This document shows positions 5,867 through 22,692 of a stretch of 57,763 nucleotides of DNA, piece after piece. The notes beneath the pieces are model-generated. The model was not told the origin of the DNA, made no database searches, and saw nothing but the letters and a program-made list of their open reading frames with translations. Where the stretch lies: positions 1 to 57,763 of the forward strand of contig JBPOHW010000014.1 of NCBI GenBank assembly GCA_052035095.1. Reading direction: 5' to 3'. Origin of the DNA: Candidatus Moraniibacteriota bacterium. Lineage in GTDB: Bacteria; Patescibacteriota; Minisyncoccia; Moranbacterales; UBA1568. Position numbers and translations under genes: made by a program. Numbering within the stretch: the stretch's first letter is position 1; each line of letters starts with the position of its first letter.

Positions 5867-7945
<2,079 letters not shown>

Positions 7946-10034: not shown

Positions 10035-10163
10035 TAGGACTTACGCGTTTGAGTGCAGTTCGAGGAAAATGCGAGGAACGGAGTAAGCTGTATGCGCCAT
10101 ACAGTGTCCCCGCCGAAGCGGGGGAGCATTTGACGAAGAAATGCGCCAAACGCGTAAGTCCTA
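10035..10163 (+). repeat. Repeat family A, copy 2
   Basis: Perfect 17-bp terminal stem TAGGACTTACGCGTTTG/CAAACGCGTAAGTCCTA plus the conserved core. Confidence 0.9.
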
Positions 10164-12539: not shown

Positions 12540-12669
12540 GAGGACTCGTGATTTTGAGTGCAGTTTGAGGAAGATACGAGGAGCAGAGTAAGCTGTATGT
12601 AAACATACAGCGTCCCCGCCGAGGCGGGGGAGTATCTGACGAAGAAATGCGCCAAAATCACGAGTCCTA
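12540..12669 (+). repeat. Repeat family A, copy 3
   Basis: Perfect 16-bp stem AGGACTCGTGATTTTG/CAAAATCACGAGTCCT. It overlaps the pilB stop codon. Confidence 0.9.
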
Positions 12670-14425: not shown

Positions 14426-14863
14426 CTACTGAGCATGCTGTGCTGCGCTTTCAAGCGCTTCCTCGACACTTTCCACCATTTGATGGATCGAAACATTCGA
14501 CTTGATAATGTATTTGAAAACGCCGAGCGCTTTTGCCCGCTCGATATCCTCCGGCTGTCCCAAATTGGAAAGAATGATGACCGGCACATCGCGCAAATCC
14601 TTCTCTTCCTTGAGCTTCTTCAACACTTCAAAGCCATCCATTTCCGGCATCACCAGGTCCAAGATGATAAGATTGGGGCTATTCTTTCGAAGCAAATCGA
14701 GCGTTTCCGTTCCGTTCGACGCCACCAAAACGCCAAATCCTTCCTTCTCCAATTTCGTCCGATAGAGATTGGCATAAAACTGATCATCCTCTGCTACCAA
14801 AAGAAGCGCCGTCTTTTTGTCTCCCGCCGCTTCTTTGAGTGTGGACGCAACATCCTGCATCAT
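14426..14863 (-). CDS. Single-domain response regulator (receiver)
   Basis: Motifs AEDD, LDLVMPEMDG, IILSN and YIIK. Confidence 0.93.
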   Translation of the reverse strand: MMQDVASTLKEAAGDKKTALLLVAEDDQFYANLYRTKLEKEGFGVLVASNGTETLDLLRKNSPNLIILDLVMPEMDGFEVLKKLKEEKDLRDVPVIILSNLGQPEDIERAKALGVFKYIIKSNVSIHQMVESVEEALESAAQHAQ

Positions 14864-14869
14864 ACGCGT

Positions 14870-16006
14870 TTATGTTAACGAATTATTTCCTTCTATAATT
14901 TTCTCGCGAGACTGAGAAAGAGGCAATTCGATATGAAACGTTGTTCCCTTTCCTTCGATGCTTTCAAAGAAAACTCGACCGCCCCACGCCTCAACAAAAA
15001 GTTTCACGACCGCCAACCCGAGGCCCGATCCTTCGGTTTGCGATCGCACCGCATTCGACGCCCGGAAAAATTTCGAAAAAATATTTTGCTGTTCATCAAT
15101 CGGGATGCCGATACCTTCGTCTTTTACCGAGAGACGACACATCGCGTCAATTTTTTTTACTTCAACCAAAACGTGCCCGCCGGGTTTGCTATACTTGACC
15201 GCATTCGAGACGATATTGCGCACCACCTCATAGAATCGCCTTCTTGGCACGAACAGCTTCGGGAGTTCCGGATCGATACGCTTCCCAAAAACAACCCGTC
15301 GCCGCTGAGCGTCAAGTTCGAGAAAGCGGAAGATGCCCTCCACCACCTCCGCAACATCAACGATCGCCGGCTCCTCGACTCCTCCCGTGCGATTGAACTT
15401 CGCCATATCGAGGAGATCATTGACGAGTTCAACCATCTGCTGATTGCTCGCGTGAAGGTTGATAATGGCGCTTCTCGCTTCGCGGGACAGCTCGCCGAAG
15501 TCGCCGGAAAGCAACAGATCCATACACCACCTGGCGCTCCCCAGAGGCGTTCGCAACTGATGCGCCACAATCGAAAGGAAATGATCCTTTGCCTGAATGA
15601 GCCGATGCTCGATGGTCGCATCGCTCAAGAGAATAAGCGTCCCCGCGCGAGTTCCATCTTTCTCAGAAAAAGGAAGTGCACGACCTTTTATCGGGTTCTT
15701 TGAGCCATCTTTCTTCACGAGCGATATCCTTCCTGTGAATTCCTGCGGTGATTCCGGCGGCGCGTAGGCCGAAGAAGAGAGCACGGTTTGTATATCATCA
15801 TCAATTGAGAATTTGACGATATCGCCAACCGGCCGCCCAATCGACTCATCCTCGCTCCACCCCGAAAGAGTGACAGCCTTGGGATTCATAAAGAGCATAT
15901 TCCCATGCGTATCCGCCACAAAAATAGCATCGCTCACCGAAGCGAACGCCAGCACCATCCACCGCTCCTTGCCGGAAAGATCGCAAGCTATAGAAGGAAA
16001 GTCCAT
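14870..16006 (-). CDS. Cytoplasmic PAS-domain histidine kinase
   Basis: PAS region, AHQLRTPL H-box, NIVSNAVKYS, DEGIGIP and GSGLGL. Confidence 0.93.
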   Translation of the reverse strand: MDFPSIACDLSGKERWMVLAFASVSDAIFVADTHGNMLFMNPKAVTLSGWSEDESIGRPVGDIVKFSIDDDIQTVLSSSAYAPPESPQEFTGRISLVKKDGSKNPIKGRALPFSEKDGTRAGTLILLSDATIEHRLIQAKDHFLSIVAHQLRTPLGSARWCMDLLLSGDFGELSREARSAIINLHASNQQMVELVNDLLDMAKFNRTGGVEEPAIVDVAEVVEGIFRFLELDAQRRRVVFGKRIDPELPKLFVPRRRFYEVVRNIVSNAVKYSKPGGHVLVEVKKIDAMCRLSVKDEGIGIPIDEQQNIFSKFFRASNAVRSQTEGSGLGLAVVKLFVEAWGGRVFFESIEGKGTTFHIELPLSQSREKIIEGNNSLT

Positions 16007-16064
16007 GAGAAAAAACTAAAAGATGCGCCCGATGTTTATTATAGCACAATTGAATGAAGTCTTT

Positions 16065-16715
16065 TCAAAAAAGCGTTCCGGACCGATGTGGGGAAGTGGA
16101 GACATCTTCCACTTTCTTCCTTCCGAGAAGTTCCGAAATCGCCTCCCAGCTTCGAAATTCCGGGTGGCGCTCAAGTTGCTTTTCGAGAACCCGAACGGTT
16201 ACCGCGACATCCCCTTCTGCCGTGTGCGCGCTCGTGTGAATCTCTCCACAATACTCCTTGCACGCCGCGCCCAGATTTCGCTGGGATACGATATCGCGCG
16301 GCGCGAATTTATGAAAAATAAATTTCGCGTCAAGAATTTTTCGATTCGAGTAATCAAAGCTCTTGCCGACAAGCGCAAACTCGGCGCGTAAAAACGGGAG
16401 ATCGTATCCGTACACATTGAATCCACCAACATCCGCCCCCTCAAAAATGCTCCAGAGTTCGTAGCACAGCTGGGCAAAGGTGGGCGCCGTCGCCACATCC
16501 TCATTCGTAATTCCATGTACCGCCGTCGCGTCCTTCGGGATGGAACGCCCGGGATTGATACGCCGAACACCGGCAAGCACCTCCCCGCTCGGCGCAATTT
16601 TTTGGTACGCGATTTCCACCGTTCTGTCCTCACCGGGAATAAGCCCGGTCGTTTCAAGGTCAAAGATAACAAGCGGTCGCTCAAACGGAATGAGGGTGGG
16701 GAGAGTGGAATGCAT
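16065..16715 (-). CDS. DEDDh 3'-5' exonuclease (DnaQ-like)
   Basis: Motifs FDLETTG, VHGIT, YDLPFL and AHTAEGD. Confidence 0.92.
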   Translation of the reverse strand: MHSTLPTLIPFERPLVIFDLETTGLIPGEDRTVEIAYQKIAPSGEVLAGVRRINPGRSIPKDATAVHGITNEDVATAPTFAQLCYELWSIFEGADVGGFNVYGYDLPFLRAEFALVGKSFDYSNRKILDAKFIFHKFAPRDIVSQRNLGAACKEYCGEIHTSAHTAEGDVAVTVRVLEKQLERHPEFRSWEAISELLGRKKVEDVSTSPHRSGTLF

Positions 16716-16827
16716 AGGTCGAAAATATAAAAAAATACTCCCACATGGTAGCATGTGTAAAAACTTTTGTCATAAAAAAACGATTGATTCCTTAAAAAAA
16801 TCAATCGCTTGCAAGTAAAGTAGAACC

Positions 16828-17511
16828 CTAGATTTCCTTCGCCCCATATTCCTTCCAGTACGCTTCAAATCGAGGGAGAAAAAGTTTGTATTTTGGATCT
16901 TCGCGAATATACTCCATAAGTTCGCGCATCCCCACAATACTCTGCACAAAGACCCCTTTCTGTTCAGAAAGCTCCTTCGCCACCGAAAAGCCGGAAGTGC
17001 CTCGATCCTCACGATCAAACCCAGCAATCACGCCCCTCACATACGCGCCGCGCTCACGAGCCACATCAATAGTCATCCCTATCGTCGTACCACTGGAGAT
17101 TACACCAGTAACTATGACAACATGAGATCCTATTTCAAGAGGCGCCCACAGAAATCGTTCCTTATTCCCAGAAAAGCTTCCTTCCTTTCGGAATGAAGAG
17201 AATCGAACATCTTTTACTGCGTATTCTTGAGACAAAACTGTGGCAGTGGCAAACGCGAGAATTTCTCCAGTATCGGGAGGTCCTAAAAGAATCGGGAATG
17301 CCTCTTCAAGGTTGTCATTATTAGGAGTATCACCCAAAAGAAACGCCGCCGCATAACACCTCCCGATGACAAAGAGCGCCTCCACATTTGGAATTGCACT
17401 CATATTAATCAAGTACGGACTTTTTCGACCCTTCAAGCTAAACCCCCCATCAACATTAAGCACATTGAAATCCAAGCAGGTCTGAACAAACATCTCCTGA
17501 TATTTTTGCAT
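16828..17511 (-). CDS. Orotate phosphoribosyltransferase-like protein with degenerate PRPP loop
   Basis: PyrE-like FSLKGRKSPY, SFRKE and VIAGFDRED. The DD of the PRPP motif is replaced by TG. Confidence 0.75.
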   Translation of the reverse strand: MQKYQEMFVQTCLDFNVLNVDGGFSLKGRKSPYLINMSAIPNVEALFVIGRCYAAAFLLGDTPNNDNLEEAFPILLGPPDTGEILAFATATVLSQEYAVKDVRFSSFRKEGSFSGNKERFLWAPLEIGSHVVIVTGVISSGTTIGMTIDVARERGAYVRGVIAGFDREDRGTSGFSVAKELSEQKGVFVQSIVGMRELMEYIREDPKYKLFLPRFEAYWKEYGAKEI

Positions 17512-17607
17512 CACATTTCTCCTTTCAGTTTGAAAACAACTCGTTTCGCACACTGGCGAAACTCGAAGCCACTGTACTCGAATTGGCGGGCGCATGTCAA
17601 ATCACTC

Positions 17608-17658
17608 AAAAAAAAAGAAGGCCTCTGTCAGTTAACGCTTCAACTGATGAGCACCTTC
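17608..17658 (-). terminator. Intrinsic terminator
   Basis: GAAGG...CCTTC long hairpin followed by a T9 tract. Confidence 0.65.
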
Positions 17659-17667
17659 GGAACAGAA

Positions 17668-18399
17668 CTATCGTGTTTTCATAGCGTTGCGCAACCTCGC
17701 CCATTCGTTTTTAGGTTTCCAAACGACATTATCATCCTTGATCGCGTCCGCTACCAGTAGATCATCCTGCCGATATTGCGGAGTCTCCCTTTCGACAACA
17801 GCCACAATAGGCACGCCGATTCCCTCAAAGAAGAATTCCTCCTGAAACGGAAAGGAACGGTTGATAGCACACTGGATAGCGATCACATTCGCGCCGGCAT
17901 TCTTGATGATCTGGCAGAGCTTCCCCGAAGTTGAGAGGTTATTGACAAGCTCCTCCCCAATAAGGACGCGATCCCCTGCGTTTATCGCCCCTTCATAACG
18001 CCCGAGGAAAATTCGATTACCTTCCTTCTCTGCGAAAACATGGCGACAACCGAGAATTGCCGCCACTTCCTGCGAAAATTTCACTCCCGCCCATGGCGCA
18101 CCGAGGATAATCGTTGGAGAAACACCGCGAGAATCCAGCGTCTCAACCATCATATTCGCGAACAACGTAAGCACGGCAGGCCACATATCAGCTTTGGAAA
18201 AATTAAAGTATGTGAGTCCGACATACTTCTTCTTTTTCCCATCAATGTCCGCGTAATCGCCGGTATATCCAACAATCGGACCGATTGGCATTCCATCATT
18301 CCCAAGGGGACACGTATAGTATCCTTCGCAATTTATCAATGTTTGCAGAGGGTCGCCTGAAACAATAAGATGCGACCCATCACTTGAATATACGTTCAT
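17668..18399 (-). CDS. Type I phosphoribosyltransferase (PyrE-like, divergent)
   Basis: GAPWAG loop and PRPP motif VLIGEELVNNLST. Confidence 0.8.
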   Translation of the reverse strand: MNVYSSDGSHLIVSGDPLQTLINCEGYYTCPLGNDGMPIGPIVGYTGDYADIDGKKKKYVGLTYFNFSKADMWPAVLTLFANMMVETLDSRGVSPTIILGAPWAGVKFSQEVAAILGCRHVFAEKEGNRIFLGRYEGAINAGDRVLIGEELVNNLSTSGKLCQIIKNAGANVIAIQCAINRSFPFQEEFFFEGIGVPIVAVVERETPQYRQDDLLVADAIKDDNVVWKPKNEWARLRNAMKTR

Positions 18400-18468
18400 T
18401 TCAATATCCTCTTTCCGACTTGAAGAGAAGAAGAGAGCGTTTTTCAGGCGCCCTCTGCGATCACTGCA

Positions 18469-19197
18469 TCACGCAACAATTTGCCGCGTGACACGCCGTG
18501 CGGCTTCCCGCATTTTTTCTGGGGTATCCTGTTTATAGATGGCGGAACCGACGATAGCATGCCACCTGCCTCCCGCTACGCGTCCGCATTCGGAAATATC
18601 CCCTCCCTGACTGATAAACCCCGGAGCATAGAGAACGAATTCTTCATCGCCAAGCTCTTCCATAAGCCATCCCCGAATCCGCAGAACCCACTCGAGCTTC
18701 GTTCCCGGAACGACAAAGTCCCGAACGCCGAGATCGCACGCGAGACGAAAGATTCGTTCAACAGCCTCATCGGCTATATAGCCGCCCTCGCTCACCAAGA
18801 ACTGCGGATGAGTCATGACGCCGCCGACTACTACCCTAAGACCCCTATTGAAACATGCTTCCGTCCATACTTCCTGTGTTTTCGGTCCGGCAAAGGGAAA
18901 AAGAATCACGGCGTCCACGCGACTCCATGCCAACGCTTCTGCAAACGGCGCTCCCATTTCGGGAATATCTGTCGCTCCTTTCTGGGGATCATAGATAACG
19001 GGAAAACCCGCACCCATCACATCTTTGACCGCTGTAACAGCACAATCCAAGTCACATAAACCCAGAAGGGACCCGAGCTTGAAAGCTCCTATGCCGGGAA
19101 CATCGCGGACACTCCCTACAAGTTCGTCGAGAGTATTCAGATCAATAACGTCCGCCGCAACGACAACACTTTTCTCTGCTTCAATGATTCTTTTCAT
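18469..19197 (-). CDS. pyrF: Orotidine 5'-phosphate decarboxylase (divergent type)
   Basis: Motifs VVAADV, AFKLG, IYDPQKGATDIP, PGFISQGG and IVGSAIY. Confidence 0.85.
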   Translation of the reverse strand: MKRIIEAEKSVVVAADVIDLNTLDELVGSVRDVPGIGAFKLGSLLGLCDLDCAVTAVKDVMGAGFPVIYDPQKGATDIPEMGAPFAEALAWSRVDAVILFPFAGPKTQEVWTEACFNRGLRVVVGGVMTHPQFLVSEGGYIADEAVERIFRLACDLGVRDFVVPGTKLEWVLRIRGWLMEELGDEEFVLYAPGFISQGGDISECGRVAGGRWHAIVGSAIYKQDTPEKMREAARRVTRQIVA

Positions 19198-19305
19198 GCT
19201 TACTCTCCGCTTCATGTTGGTAAAGATCCGCTCCGAAATTTTCCGAAGCTCGGCACTATCCTCTCGTATTTTGAAGCCATTGTCAATTCCGATTTCCAAA
19301 AAGAA

Positions 19306-19356
19306 CTACACCACAAAATTCACCAGTCGATCCGGAACGAAAATGACTTTTCGAAC
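19306..19356 (-). repeat. Orphan duplicate of the last 16 codons plus stop of leuS
   Basis: Encodes VRKVIFVPDRLVNFVV*, identical in amino acids to 20203-20253. Confidence 0.92.
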
Positions 19357-19498
19357 CGTTTTGTTGGTAATGAACCCACTCCGGACATTTCGGAAGCCTA
19401 TCAATATCCATTGCAATCCTACCTGTTTCGATTCTCGATTGTCAATCCGAAAAAGAAAAACATCACCCACATACGAGAGTGATGCCAGAAAAACATTT

Positions 19499-20176
19499 TT
19501 ATACATCGCCTTCAAAGGATTCGTGAAACGCCCTCAACTCATCGCACCGAAGCTTCCGGAGTATACCCTTATACATTGATCGTATCCCTTCATTGGAGAG
19601 CTTTTTCCGAATCAGCTCTCCGTCCTTCCTTCTTCTCAGAACAAAAAATCCCTCTTGAACTATATCATGAATATCCCAATCTTTCTCGAGGAGGGTATGG
19701 AGAAGCTGACGCTCGTCTCGAGAGAGGCCAACTTCCACCGCGCGATCCCAAATAGCCCTTCGAAGAGAAGTGCCGTCGTATTCCCGAATCGTCCGACACG
19801 TAGCATCGTCTTGTTCCGCTATGGTATCGAGACGCGTTCGATCCGAATCCTCACACTCCGGGGCATCAAGCGAAACCGGAAGACTCACTCGACTGAAGAA
19901 AAGCACTTCCCGAACCTTCCCCGGACGAAGCTTTCGCGATCGAACCTTCCCTTTCAAAAGAAGGAGAAGGAGCCACACCTCTTCACGAGGAAGACTCTCG
20001 AGCCACTCCCTGGCAAAATTCGCCGACTCACTGTCTCCCGCAGGTCCCCGATTGAAGTATGCCGTACAAACAATGTTCACGATGAGTTCAATCAGCAACA
20101 TGTCTCGAGACATTCGTCGCAATTCCCGATCACCAATCGGAAAACCTCTCTTGACCGCACTCGCCTTACTTGTCAT
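19499..20176 (-). CDS. Sigma-70 region 3.2/4-like protein lacking a recognisable region 2
   Basis: PVSLDAPECEDSDRTRLDTI (region 3.2), LSRDERQLL and LSNEGIRSMYKGILRKLR (region 4). GGAGG RBS present. Confidence 0.65.
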   Translation of the reverse strand: MTSKASAVKRGFPIGDRELRRMSRDMLLIELIVNIVCTAYFNRGPAGDSESANFAREWLESLPREEVWLLLLLLKGKVRSRKLRPGKVREVLFFSRVSLPVSLDAPECEDSDRTRLDTIAEQDDATCRTIREYDGTSLRRAIWDRAVEVGLSRDERQLLHTLLEKDWDIHDIVQEGFFVLRRRKDGELIRKKLSNEGIRSMYKGILRKLRCDELRAFHESFEGDV

Positions 20177-20202
20177 AAAGAACCCTCCGAGACCAAAATC
20201 AA

Positions 20203-22692
20203 TCAAACGACGAAGTTCACCAATCGATCCGGAACAAATATCACCTTCCGAACTACTGCATTAGCAAGGTACTTCTTCACCGACTCTTCTTCCTGCGCCA
20301 TTCGCTCAACATCTTCTTGCGACGAACCCGCGAGCACGCGAAGCCGTGCGCGGAGCTTGCCGTTGACCTGTATCACCACTTCCGCCATTTCTTCTTTGAG
20401 AAATTTGGAATTGGCTTTGGGCCAACGTTCCAGCATAATGGATGCTTTGTTTCCTTGCAAACTCCACAATTCCTCGGCAATATGCGGCGCAAAGGGCGAA
20501 AGGAGAATGAGTAGAGTTTCAAAATCTTCTCTCGCAACCGATTCCGCCTTTTCCATTTCATTTACAAAAATCATGAGCGCCGAAATCGCCGTATTGAATC
20601 GCATCCCCTCGATATCTTCGCTTACTTTTTTAATGGTCTTATGCAAGAGGGCATTCAGCTTTCCGCTCTCAGCTTTCGGGTTTCGACCGCTGACGACTGA
20701 CTGCTGATCGCTGATTGCCGGCGCAAGCCTCCATACCTTCTCCAAAAACCGCCGCATCCCGACAACACCGTCCGTATTCCACGACACGCTCTGCGAAAAC
20801 GGTCCCAGAAACATTTCGTAGAGCCGGAGCGCGTCCGCGCCGAAGCGCCGAACCATATCGTCCGGATTCACCACATTGCCCCAGCGCTTCGACATCTTGC
20901 GTCCGTCGGACGCCATGATAAGCCCCACATGGGCAAGTCGCTTGAAGGGCTCCTTCGTCGAGACAACACTGATATCATAGAGAAACTTGTGCCAAAATCG
21001 CGCGTAGAGCAAATGCCGCGTCGCATGCTCCGCGCCACCCACATAGAGATCAACCGGCATCCATTCCTTCTCTTTCTTGGGATTAATGAGTTTTTTGGAA
21101 TTGTTTGGATCAATATACCGGAGATAATACCAGCTCGATCCCGCCCACTGCGGCATCGTATTGTTCTCGCGCCGCGCCGCGCCGCCACAGACGGGACATT
21201 TCGTCTTCACCCACTTTTCAATGCTTGCCAAAGGCGACTCCCCCGTCCCCGTCGGCTCATACGACTTCACTTCCGGCAACTTCAAGGGCAACTCCTTCTC
21301 CGGCACCGGCACCCATCCACACGATTCACATTTCATGAGCGGGATCGGTTCGCCCCAATATCTCTGCCGCGAAAACACCCAGTCCCGCAACTTGTAATTC
21401 ACTTGTTTCTTGCCGAGCTTCCTCTTCATCAACCACGCTGTCATTTTCTCCCGCGCCTCTTGGGATGAAAGCCCCGTAAATTCTCCGGAATTTACCAAAA
21501 TACCATCCTCAACAAATGCCTCCATGTTTTCCGCCTGATTCTTTATTCCTGATTCTTCATTCACCCCAACCGACTGCCGCACTGACACATCATACTTCTT
21601 CGCAAATGCAAAGTCTCGTTCATCATGCGCCGGCACTGCCATCACCGCGCCCGTCCCATAATTCCCCAGTACATAATCCGCCACATAGATTGGCACTGAT
21701 TCTCCGGTAAACGGATTCACCGCCTCGACGCCCTCCAACCTCACGCCGGTCTTTTCCCTGCTCGCATCATTTCTCTCCTGCTCCGTCTTTTTCTTCGTTG
21801 ACTCAATGTATTTCCTCACCTCCTCGGAATTGGAAATTGAAAATTGATCATTGAAAATTAACTGGTGTTCCGGCGCCACCACCACATAGGTGCACCCAAA
21901 AATCGTATCCACTCTCGTAGTGAAGACTTCGATAAAATCTTGAGAATTTTGAATTTGAGAATTATTTGGAAATTGGTTATTGGAAATTGGAAATTTTATC
22001 AATGTTCCCTCCGATCGCCCGATCCAATTCCGCTGTTGTTCCTTGATAGACTCACTCCAGTCGAGTTGCTCCGCATCGAGATCATGGAGCAATCGATCGG
22101 CATAGGCGGTCATCCGGATCACCCACTGGCGGAGAGGTTTCTTCTCGATTTCGCTTCCGCACACTTCGCATTTTCCATCCTCTAAGTCTTCGTTGGCAAG
22201 ACCCGTCTGACATGTGGGGCACCAATTGATCGGTTCCTCGGATTCATACACCAGTCCCTTTTTGAAAAGCTGCAAAAATATCCATTGTGTCCATCGATAA
22301 TATTCGGGATCAGTCGTATTAATCTCACGATCCCAGTCGTAGGTAAAACCAAGATTTGAAAGTTGTTTCTTGAAGTTGGCAATATTTTTTCGGACAGAGA
22401 TTCTCGGGTGTGTCTTGCTCTTTATTGCAAAGCGTTCAGCCGGAAGACCAAAAGCATCCCATCCCATCGGGTGAAGCACACTATATCCTTCGAGTTGTTT
22501 CTTCCGCGCCACGACATCGGTTGCGATATAGCCCTTGGGATGCCCCACATGAAGCCCCGCCCCCGACGGGTATGGAAACATATCGAGCGCATAAAACTTT
22601 TTCGCCCGATCATACTGCTTATAGATTTTCTTCGTCTCCCACTCCTTCTGCCACTTCGGCTCTATTTTCTTCGGATCGTATTTCGCATGCAT
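20203..22692 (-). CDS. leuS: Leucine--tRNA ligase
   Basis: Motifs MFPYPSGAGLHVGH, GWDAFGLPAE, EVFTTRVDT, KMSKR and VIQVNGKLR. Confidence 0.98.
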   Translation of the reverse strand: MHAKYDPKKIEPKWQKEWETKKIYKQYDRAKKFYALDMFPYPSGAGLHVGHPKGYIATDVVARKKQLEGYSVLHPMGWDAFGLPAERFAIKSKTHPRISVRKNIANFKKQLSNLGFTYDWDREINTTDPEYYRWTQWIFLQLFKKGLVYESEEPINWCPTCQTGLANEDLEDGKCEVCGSEIEKKPLRQWVIRMTAYADRLLHDLDAEQLDWSESIKEQQRNWIGRSEGTLIKFPISNNQFPNNSQIQNSQDFIEVFTTRVDTIFGCTYVVVAPEHQLIFNDQFSISNSEEVRKYIESTKKKTEQERNDASREKTGVRLEGVEAVNPFTGESVPIYVADYVLGNYGTGAVMAVPAHDERDFAFAKKYDVSVRQSVGVNEESGIKNQAENMEAFVEDGILVNSGEFTGLSSQEAREKMTAWLMKRKLGKKQVNYKLRDWVFSRQRYWGEPIPLMKCESCGWVPVPEKELPLKLPEVKSYEPTGTGESPLASIEKWVKTKCPVCGGAARRENNTMPQWAGSSWYYLRYIDPNNSKKLINPKKEKEWMPVDLYVGGAEHATRHLLYARFWHKFLYDISVVSTKEPFKRLAHVGLIMASDGRKMSKRWGNVVNPDDMVRRFGADALRLYEMFLGPFSQSVSWNTDGVVGMRRFLEKVWRLAPAISDQQSVVSGRNPKAESGKLNALLHKTIKKVSEDIEGMRFNTAISALMIFVNEMEKAESVAREDFETLLILLSPFAPHIAEELWSLQGNKASIMLERWPKANSKFLKEEMAEVVIQVNGKLRARLRVLAGSSQEDVERMAQEEESVKKYLANAVVRKVIFVPDRLVNFVV

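Follow-up and report, generated by a model that had tools for sequence, protein, structure and literature searches.

Prophage e14 and phage 21 integrate in the 3' end of the Escherichia coli gene icd and leave an icdC pseudogene behind (Hill et al. 1989, as described in PMC13626634). Loci of rhs genes, of contact-dependent inhibition (CDI) and of type VI secretion systems (T6SS) undergo C-terminal or sequential displacement, which was proposed to proceed via homology-facilitated illegitimate recombination (Kirchberger et al. 2017, PMC5361080; Jackson et al. 2009 on displacement, as cited there), and orphaned 3' ends resulting from such recombination have a precedent in the same paper. The recombination itself has been described in transformation (de Vries and Wackernagel 2002, Prudhomme et al. 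2002, Meier and Wackernagel 2003, all as cited in PMC5361080). Here, we analyzed a stretch of 57,763 nucleotides from a Candidatus Moraniibacteriota bacterium (contig JBPOHW010000014.1 of assembly GCA_052035095.1), which we call the window, and in which the 3' end of leuS, the gene for leucyl-tRNA synthetase, occurs twice. Our work shows that this locus is a hybrid of two gene orders found separately in relatives, and we consider it reasonably probable that the two were joined by homology-facilitated illegitimate recombination.

Both copies of the leuS end lie on the minus strand and encode VRKVIFVPDRLVNFVV*. Copy B is the end of the intact gene, and copy A (19306-19356) is situated 897 bp downstream of it. 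Compared codon by codon, their 48 coding bases differ at 10 synonymous and 0 nonsynonymous positions, the stop codons are unlike (TAG in copy A, TGA in copy B), and a 12-bp stretch, GTTCCGGATCGA, is common to both. The 16 codons contain 13.0 synonymous and 35.0 nonsynonymous sites, which gives a proportion of differing sites of 0.77 for the synonymous class (pS) and 0 for the nonsynonymous class (pN); the probability that 10 of 10 random differences are synonymous is 2.1e-6. A first-pass annotation made from the letters of the window had reported a duplicated leuS end with synonymous differences only, another stop and a 12-bp core, and our count confirms it in each of these respects. The similarity between the copies ends upstream of codon -16/-17. 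Codon -17 of copy A is ACG (Thr), in agreement with the alleles of relatives, and upstream of this codon there is a promoter leader and not leuS. Among the 42 window genes compared, leuS is the only one whose end recurs elsewhere with at least 10 of its 16 residues matching. In the longest reading of the T2SSF open reading frame (ORF), which uses an upstream start, the first 16 residues recur at 12 of 16 positions on the minus strand (approximately 12614-12661 and 10108-10155); this is probably not a gene-end duplication.

Which of the two ends belongs to which gene order became clear from close relatives, taken from Logan and ENA contigs. Their genes downstream of leuS are variable, as the first-pass annotation had anticipated, and fall into several architectures. 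In type 2 (L170, L171-176, L177, L178 and L085), leuS is followed by a member of an ORF family that we call ORF22x (ORF225 in the window), a terminator, a promoter, a leader and a phosphoribosyltransferase (PRT) gene; in a short form of this type (L087 and L185) the promoter of the RNase T gene comes directly after ORF22x. In type 1 (L179/L180 and L181-184), a promoter comes immediately after leuS, and a leader and a pyrF-like gene come next. L169 has yet another order, with the PRT gene directly behind leuS. LeuS-based scans of the GTDB and JGI collections returned distant LeuS only (at most 63% identity), and 100 distant loci contained no convincing repeated leuS end, with one chance-level match (9/16) far upstream.

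The window combines the two main types. The half that would come from a type-2 locus comprises copy B, ORF225, a terminator, promoter P1 and leader 1; the half that would come from a type-1 locus comprises copy A, still joined to its own promoter P2, leader 2 and the pyrF-like gene (Table 1). L085 has the same terminator, P1 and leader 1 as the window, and there the leader continues into a PRT gene and no copy A is present; in relatives generally, the counterpart of leader 1 stands before a PRT gene. On the other side, positions 6068-6910 of L179 align as one colinear piece with window positions 19353-18499, which run from copy A through P2 and leader 2 into the pyrF-like gene. The -35 box of L179, L181 and L184 is located at the leuS stop codon or immediately behind it, like that of P2 behind copy A, from which P2 is separated by 19 T-rich bases. 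Homologous promoter-leader modules flank copy A, one on either side. At the junction, the end of leader 1 (...TTACCAACA) abuts AAACG GTT CGA of leuS codon -17, and leader and leuS are otherwise unrelated.

Copy A resembles leuS ends that are in use elsewhere. Copy A and the working leuS end of L171 agree in 42 of 44 positions, among them the TAG stop codon and the T-run that follows. Contigs of the runs X5 and X6 contain ...NSVIRKV, then an A-like end (1-2 mismatches in approximately 35 nt), and then a PRT gene. L169 also has an A-like working end. The LeuS C terminus is 64-96% identical among lineages, with the last 16 codons nearly invariant, and the leuS ends sampled here combine A-type and B-type blocks in mosaic form; the end of L085, for example, carries an A-like central block. 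Shuffle tests detected no second leuS end in L170, L171, L177, L178 or L185 (p = 0.62-0.97). A borderline leuS-end match in L085 (p = 0.015) was rejected, as it is most readily accounted for by the T-rich terminator and a -35 box that resembles CCGGATCGAC. The duplication is not fixed across the clade; most relatives lack copy A.

The hybrid anatomy is directly visible in these alignments, and the process behind it we infer. DNA of a related lineage would have been taken up, one of its sides joined by homologous recombination and the other by an illegitimate join. Three elements of such a scar are found here: a conserved anchor gene that is shared, an orphan 3' fragment in its prior context, and both parental architectures among relatives. 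The earlier suggestion that both copies had once been selected as LeuS termini agrees with this history, with the addition that they were selected in different lineages and united later by DNA exchange. The differences between them would be synonymous only because, up to the join, each copy served its own lineage as the functional terminus. Why, then, has copy A not decayed? We consider it too short and too young; a relic of 54 nt would begin to show decay only after neutral divergence of a few per cent. The transfer could have run in either direction. A type-1 locus may have received the ORF225 module, whose leuS end then displaced the resident one, or a type-2 locus may have received the pyrF module together with a leuS end as a passenger. 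All relatives that are nearest in their flanks have type-2 loci, which favors entry of the pyrF module, and a relic in L087 (described below) favors entry of the ORF225 module. Strain comparisons (L081, L085 and L171) did not separate the two directions because leuS is mosaic and the contigs are short.

The hybrid occupies a slot (16780-20253) that extends from the conserved end of leuS to the promoter of the RNase T-like gene and is variable in this Patescibacteria clade. The flanks are similar between the window and its relatives, with 90% identity of the LeuS C terminus to that of the L171-176 lineage and 96% identity of the RNase T-like protein to that of L171, versus 42% identity between ORF225 and ORF219 of L171 and 38% between the PyrE-like PRTs. 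Homology with L087, L171 and L172 begins again at 16780 in all three. The GC content at third codon positions is 44-52% in the slot genes (16828-20176) and 57-62% in the flanking core genes. L081 is 100% identical to the window over 14756-20253, 90-98% identical up to approximately 20620 and 40-80% identical beyond; its leuS further upstream (20254-21120 compared) is as distant from that of the window as the leuS of other genera. No convincing older, nested leuS-end relics were detected before the RNase T gene or between slot genes of the window, L171, L179 and L182. Single nominal matches in L182 (p = 0.009-0.03) and L179 (p = 0.02-0.05) were lost across the 42 comparisons. Apart from the slot, the window is ordinary core chromosome, with tgt, gyrB, efp, type IV pilus genes, the ATP synthase operon, recO, ileS and argS.

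Table 1. Features of the slot and its borders, in minus-strand order.
Feature	Position in window	Strand	Basis or remark
leuS, intact 829-aa leucyl-tRNA synthetase	20203-22692	minus	ORF; Pfam tRNA-synt_1, LeuRS editing domain, Anticodon_1
Copy B, functional leuS terminus (last 16 codons and TGA)	20203-20253	minus	contiguous with ORF225, as in type-2 relatives
Spacer with ribosome-binding site, 26 nt	between copy B and ORF225	minus	
ORF225	19499-20176	minus	weak partial match to sigma-70 regions 3.2-4; directly downstream of leuS in relatives
Terminator-like hairpin and T tract behind ORF225	19450-19486	minus	consensus scan and sequence
Promoter-like site P1, TTGACA-18-TAGGAT	19416-19445	minus	conserved in type-2 relatives
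Leader 1, ending in ...TTACCAACA	19362-19415	minus	alignment with leaders of L085, L170, L178, L179 and leader 2
Copy A, relic of a second leuS allele (last 17 codons and TAG), untranslated	19306-19359	minus	colinear with leuS end of L179
Promoter-like site P2, TTGACA-17-GAGGAT, right behind copy A	19258-19286	minus	layout as in L179, L181, L184
Leader 2, before pyrF-like gene	19216-19257	minus	homologous to leader 1
pyrF-like gene, divergent orotidine 5'-monophosphate (OMP) decarboxylase family, 242 aa	18469-19197	minus	weak Pfam OMPdecase match
PRT-243, gene of 243 aa	17668-18399	minus	ORF; without Pfam match
P3 and leader 3	17528-17600	minus	
PyrE-like PRT gene, 227 aa from ATG at 17511	16828-17511	minus	38% identical to L171 PRT
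Terminator	between PyrE-like PRT and RNase T-like genes	minus	
RNase T-like exonuclease gene (16065-16754) and upstream region to 16780	16065-16780	minus	Pfam RNase_T; right border of slot

Several points weigh against this history. Parental loci at high identity were not recovered, and the closest type-1 pyrF-like proteins are approximately 72-73% identical to that of the window. A 361-nt contig in X1 and X10 represents a relative with approximately 89% identity in the pyrF-like region. We infer the illegitimate join, with its microhomology of 1-2 nt, from one product. Natural transformation is presumed in this organism; type IV pilus genes (T2SSE, T2SSF and pilins) and recO are present in the window, and recA in the syntenic locus of L179. 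The evidence on excision comes from contigs, which lose rare variants. Furthermore, L087 carries a second, decayed leuS end, and its start coincides with that of copy A (codon -17/-16). This relic is 23/30 identical to the leuS end of L087 itself (p < 0.0002) and 44/63 identical to that of L173; it lies immediately between the stop codon of ORF217 and the conserved RNase T upstream region and thus has a junction partner unlike that in the window. The identity between L081 and the window also breaks at 20253/20254. Such a coincidence is unexpected under random illegitimate joins and hints at a preferred site. The strain breakpoints are explicable, as the highly diverged stretch upstream of codon -17 would stop the extension of a heteroduplex. 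However, a heteroduplex block does not account for two illegitimate joins at the same codon, a coincidence to which we would assign, as an estimate of ours and not a computed value, a chance of about 1 in 10 to 1 in 20 under random joins.

The shared boundary can also be read as a property of the site, an idea that we regard as possible but doubtful. The last 16-17 leuS codons would then be a preferred, recombinase-free entry point. Modules from diverged relatives would arrive repeatedly at codon -17, each with a recoded end of its own, and the previous tail would be left in place. Strand exchange that is blocked at this conserved edge, or a break specific to the site, would explain the shared start of the relic in the window, the relic in L087 and the strain breakpoint. 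If the codon -17 boundary is more than coincidence, it would indicate a so far undescribed insertion process with a preference for this site.

It is also conceivable, but in our judgment unlikely, that the 897-bp unit from copy B to leader 1, with ORF225, the terminator and P1 in between, represents a miniature integrative module that is not autonomous. An enzyme encoded elsewhere, either a recombinase or a site-specific nuclease, would insert the unit at leuS codon -17, where the recoded end of the unit would displace the resident one in the manner of e14 and phage 21 at icd. Direct repeats of a gene end bracket the unit, the displaced copy stands in ancestral synteny, and the decayed relic of L087, behind ORF217, shares this starting codon. 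The strain identity breakpoints fall at or inside the 51-nt block, and the alleles of ORF22x are decoupled from LeuS divergence, as if exchanged between lineages. However, domain searches that covered 47 of the 55 window ORFs (at least 110 aa) gave no integrase, resolvase or transposase, and ORF225 has weak sigma-like matches only, with no recombinase match. The junction on the module side also differs, being the end of leader 1 in the window and the stop codon of ORF217 in L087, and the contigs of 12 runs, a source that drops rare forms, contained no deletion between A and B, no 897-bp skip and no circle junction. The first-pass annotation had likewise noted no integrase, but its picture of a repeat-defined cassette of approximately 850 bp did not hold up, as the ORF225 family stands directly behind leuS in at least seven other lineages, six of which have no clear second end or relic. 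The 12-bp core gives no information on a crossover, because its four codons are the same or one base off in most sampled leuS alleles, including those of insertion-free genomes. Copy A is, moreover, colinear with the ordinary leuS-promoter-leader-pyrF order of other relatives. Of the two options that had been offered, a reduced integrative element and an integrase-free capture hotspot at an aminoacyl-tRNA synthetase gene, the hotspot is closer to the data, and the anatomy is explained better by a scar than by an element.

ORF225 displayed none of the features of a recombinase. On its own, the protein has no Pfam match. A profile of seven family members matches RpoD residues 456-572 (6wmr) with an E-value of 3.6e-5, other primary sigma factors match more weakly, and Pfam Sigma70_r4 matches 2 of the 7 members (best E-value, 0.0014). 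Sigma region 2 was not matched in Pfam or PDB profile searches, and the N-terminal 80 residues form family-specific helices; ORF225 is not a complete sigma factor because region 2 is not detectable. The fold prediction is weak (predicted local distance difference test [pLDDT] of 52, then 64), with a confident model for the C-terminal 75 residues, which form helices and a hairpin, a helical domain of the DNA-binding type. A Foldseek search of the model against PDB gave nothing significant, and Pfam, profile and fold searches gave no recombinase or nuclease match. The family is rare, with 10 matches among 1.84 billion representative proteins, all on metagenome contigs, and a profile search of genome contigs with an alignment of ORF225 and P0002 found nothing. 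In every contig with readable context ORF22x is directly behind leuS; this applies to L087, L170, L171-176, L177, L178, L185 and L085, hence at least seven lineages other than that of the window. Between most lineages the members share 27-48% identity (52% in the closest pair), also in cases in which the identity of the flanks is 90-96%; this fits allele swapping or diversifying selection. The ORF225 protein of L085 is identical to that of the window, and the genes have seven silent differences.

A local origin of the repeat, by which the leuS end was duplicated within this genome as a long target duplication or in tandem and then diverged in place, is very improbable. It would account for direct repeats flanking an inserted-looking gene, and insertion with a long target duplication is known for restriction-modification genes. 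However, an untranslated copy would drift to 10 synonymous and 0 nonsynonymous differences with a probability of only 2e-6, copy A matches working alleles of other lineages, and it aligns colinearly with the type-1 locus of L179. Since the two repeats are alleles that have diverged, and not copies of one target, we exclude an insertion with long target duplication.

We give equally little credence to a present function of copy A, be it as the end of a 69-aa ORF (19306-19515) or as a reserve terminus that recombination or alternative expression would bring into use. This ORF does enter copy A in frame, and the A-like central block in the leuS end of L085 indicates that alleles are exchanged. 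However, the ORF spans the terminator, promoter and leader, its frame is broken by stop codons in L085, it has no Pfam match, and most relatives lack such a copy.

An assembly chimera of two co-occurring strains, which the presence of several related strains in the same samples might suggest, is practically ruled out, as contigs of single runs from many runs and studies pass both junctions with 0 mismatches and the junction between leader 1 and leuS has no shared repeat able to mislead an assembler. The stretch is present in approximately 20 public wastewater or sludge runs from approximately 12 studies (2019-2025), and X4, with a word depth of about 40, is among the runs in which the organism is deepest. 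One contig of X2 (5686 nt) covers 16000-20439, and contigs of approximately 6 kb in X4 and X6 cover 18900-20600.

Three observations on the slot and its borders are added here. First, a 175-nt remnant of the 3' end of PRT-243 is present in L179 at 6954-7128, between the pyrF-like gene and the RNase T gene (71% identity to window positions 17680-17851), and gene decay therefore also occurs in the slot. Second, leuS of L178 (473-3412, 979 aa) and of L179 (3170-6124, 984 aa) contains an inserted NUDIX domain according to Pfam; the 829-aa LeuS of the window does not. Third, the promoter TTGACA-17/18-TAGGAT and the leader GAGCTTCGGAAAnnTyCGGAGCGGnTTCTTTACCAA precede pyrF-like or PyrE-like genes in all sampled lineages. 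The unit occurs three times in the window (19216-19257, 19362-19415 and 17528-17570), and it is found at the approximate positions 6150-6200 in L179, 1600-1660 in L170, 4190-4250 in L178 and 1455-1500 in L181. Judged by eye, it contains a small hairpin with compensatory changes between lineages. Rfam gave no match in 16700-20300, leaders included. The leader may be an undescribed cis-regulatory element of pyrimidine-type genes in Patescibacteria. The pyrF-like protein itself has 1580 homologues, and the closest sampled ones are encoded directly behind leuS in L179-L184.

The locus provides a clean natural case in which integrase-free recombination between diverged relatives would leave an essential gene with a duplicated end whose recoding is silent. 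Such a signature is commonly taken for the attachment site of a prophage or island. Because it can arise without an integrase, annotators should not infer mobile elements from this signature alone. Our data also suggest that an uncultured wastewater population of the Candidate Phyla Radiation (CPR) swaps small modules behind leuS at high frequency, with slot genes 38-48% identical between flanks of 90-96% identity and with a mosaic leuS.

How does the locus compare with the known systems? As at icd, the gene end is present twice, the copy in use is recoded, the displaced copy is a fragment and the differences are mostly silent. Unlike e14, which is a 15-kb prophage with an integrase, an att core and SOS-induced excision, the unit behind leuS measures 0.9 kb and has no recombinase, and no excision product was seen in the contigs of 12 runs. 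The ORF225 family is stable behind leuS in relatives without the repeat, and loci without ORF22x also exist (L169 and L179-184). Thus, the border repeats of an e14-type element are present here, but no linked recombinase was found among the 47 of 55 window ORFs covered, and the content is not restricted to loci that bear the repeat.

Replacement-type flexible genomic islands sit between conserved core genes. The slot resembles them in that diverged, alternative gene sets lie between flanks that are 90-96% identical. It differs in being very small (0.1-3.5 kb), in having one border inside the coding end of an essential gene, and in holding regulatory-like and nucleotide-metabolism genes instead of genes for surface structures.

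Homology-facilitated illegitimate recombination has reportedly also been observed in E. coli conjugation (PMC3240628). With the transformation cases the locus would share one homologous anchor and one join of low or no homology, by which foreign DNA is inserted with a duplication or deletion in the recipient. Those cases are experimental and come from competent models, whereas here a single natural product from an uncultured CPR bacterium points to the process. The likeness to rhs, CDI and T6SS loci extends to a conserved gene as the anchor, a presumably illegitimate other end, an old 3' end pushed downstream as an orphan, the absence of an integrase and a content behind the conserved gene that differs between strains. 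In those loci the new end is a different toxin tip and the orphan is accompanied by an immunity gene; here, both ends are the same 16 residues of an essential enzyme, and it is the neighboring genes, the sigma-like ORF and the pyr-like genes, that vary. C-terminal displacement by homology-facilitated illegitimate recombination is the closest mechanistic counterpart. We would place the leuS locus among the recombination scars, in the already known kind in which a variable slot retains a displaced gene end.

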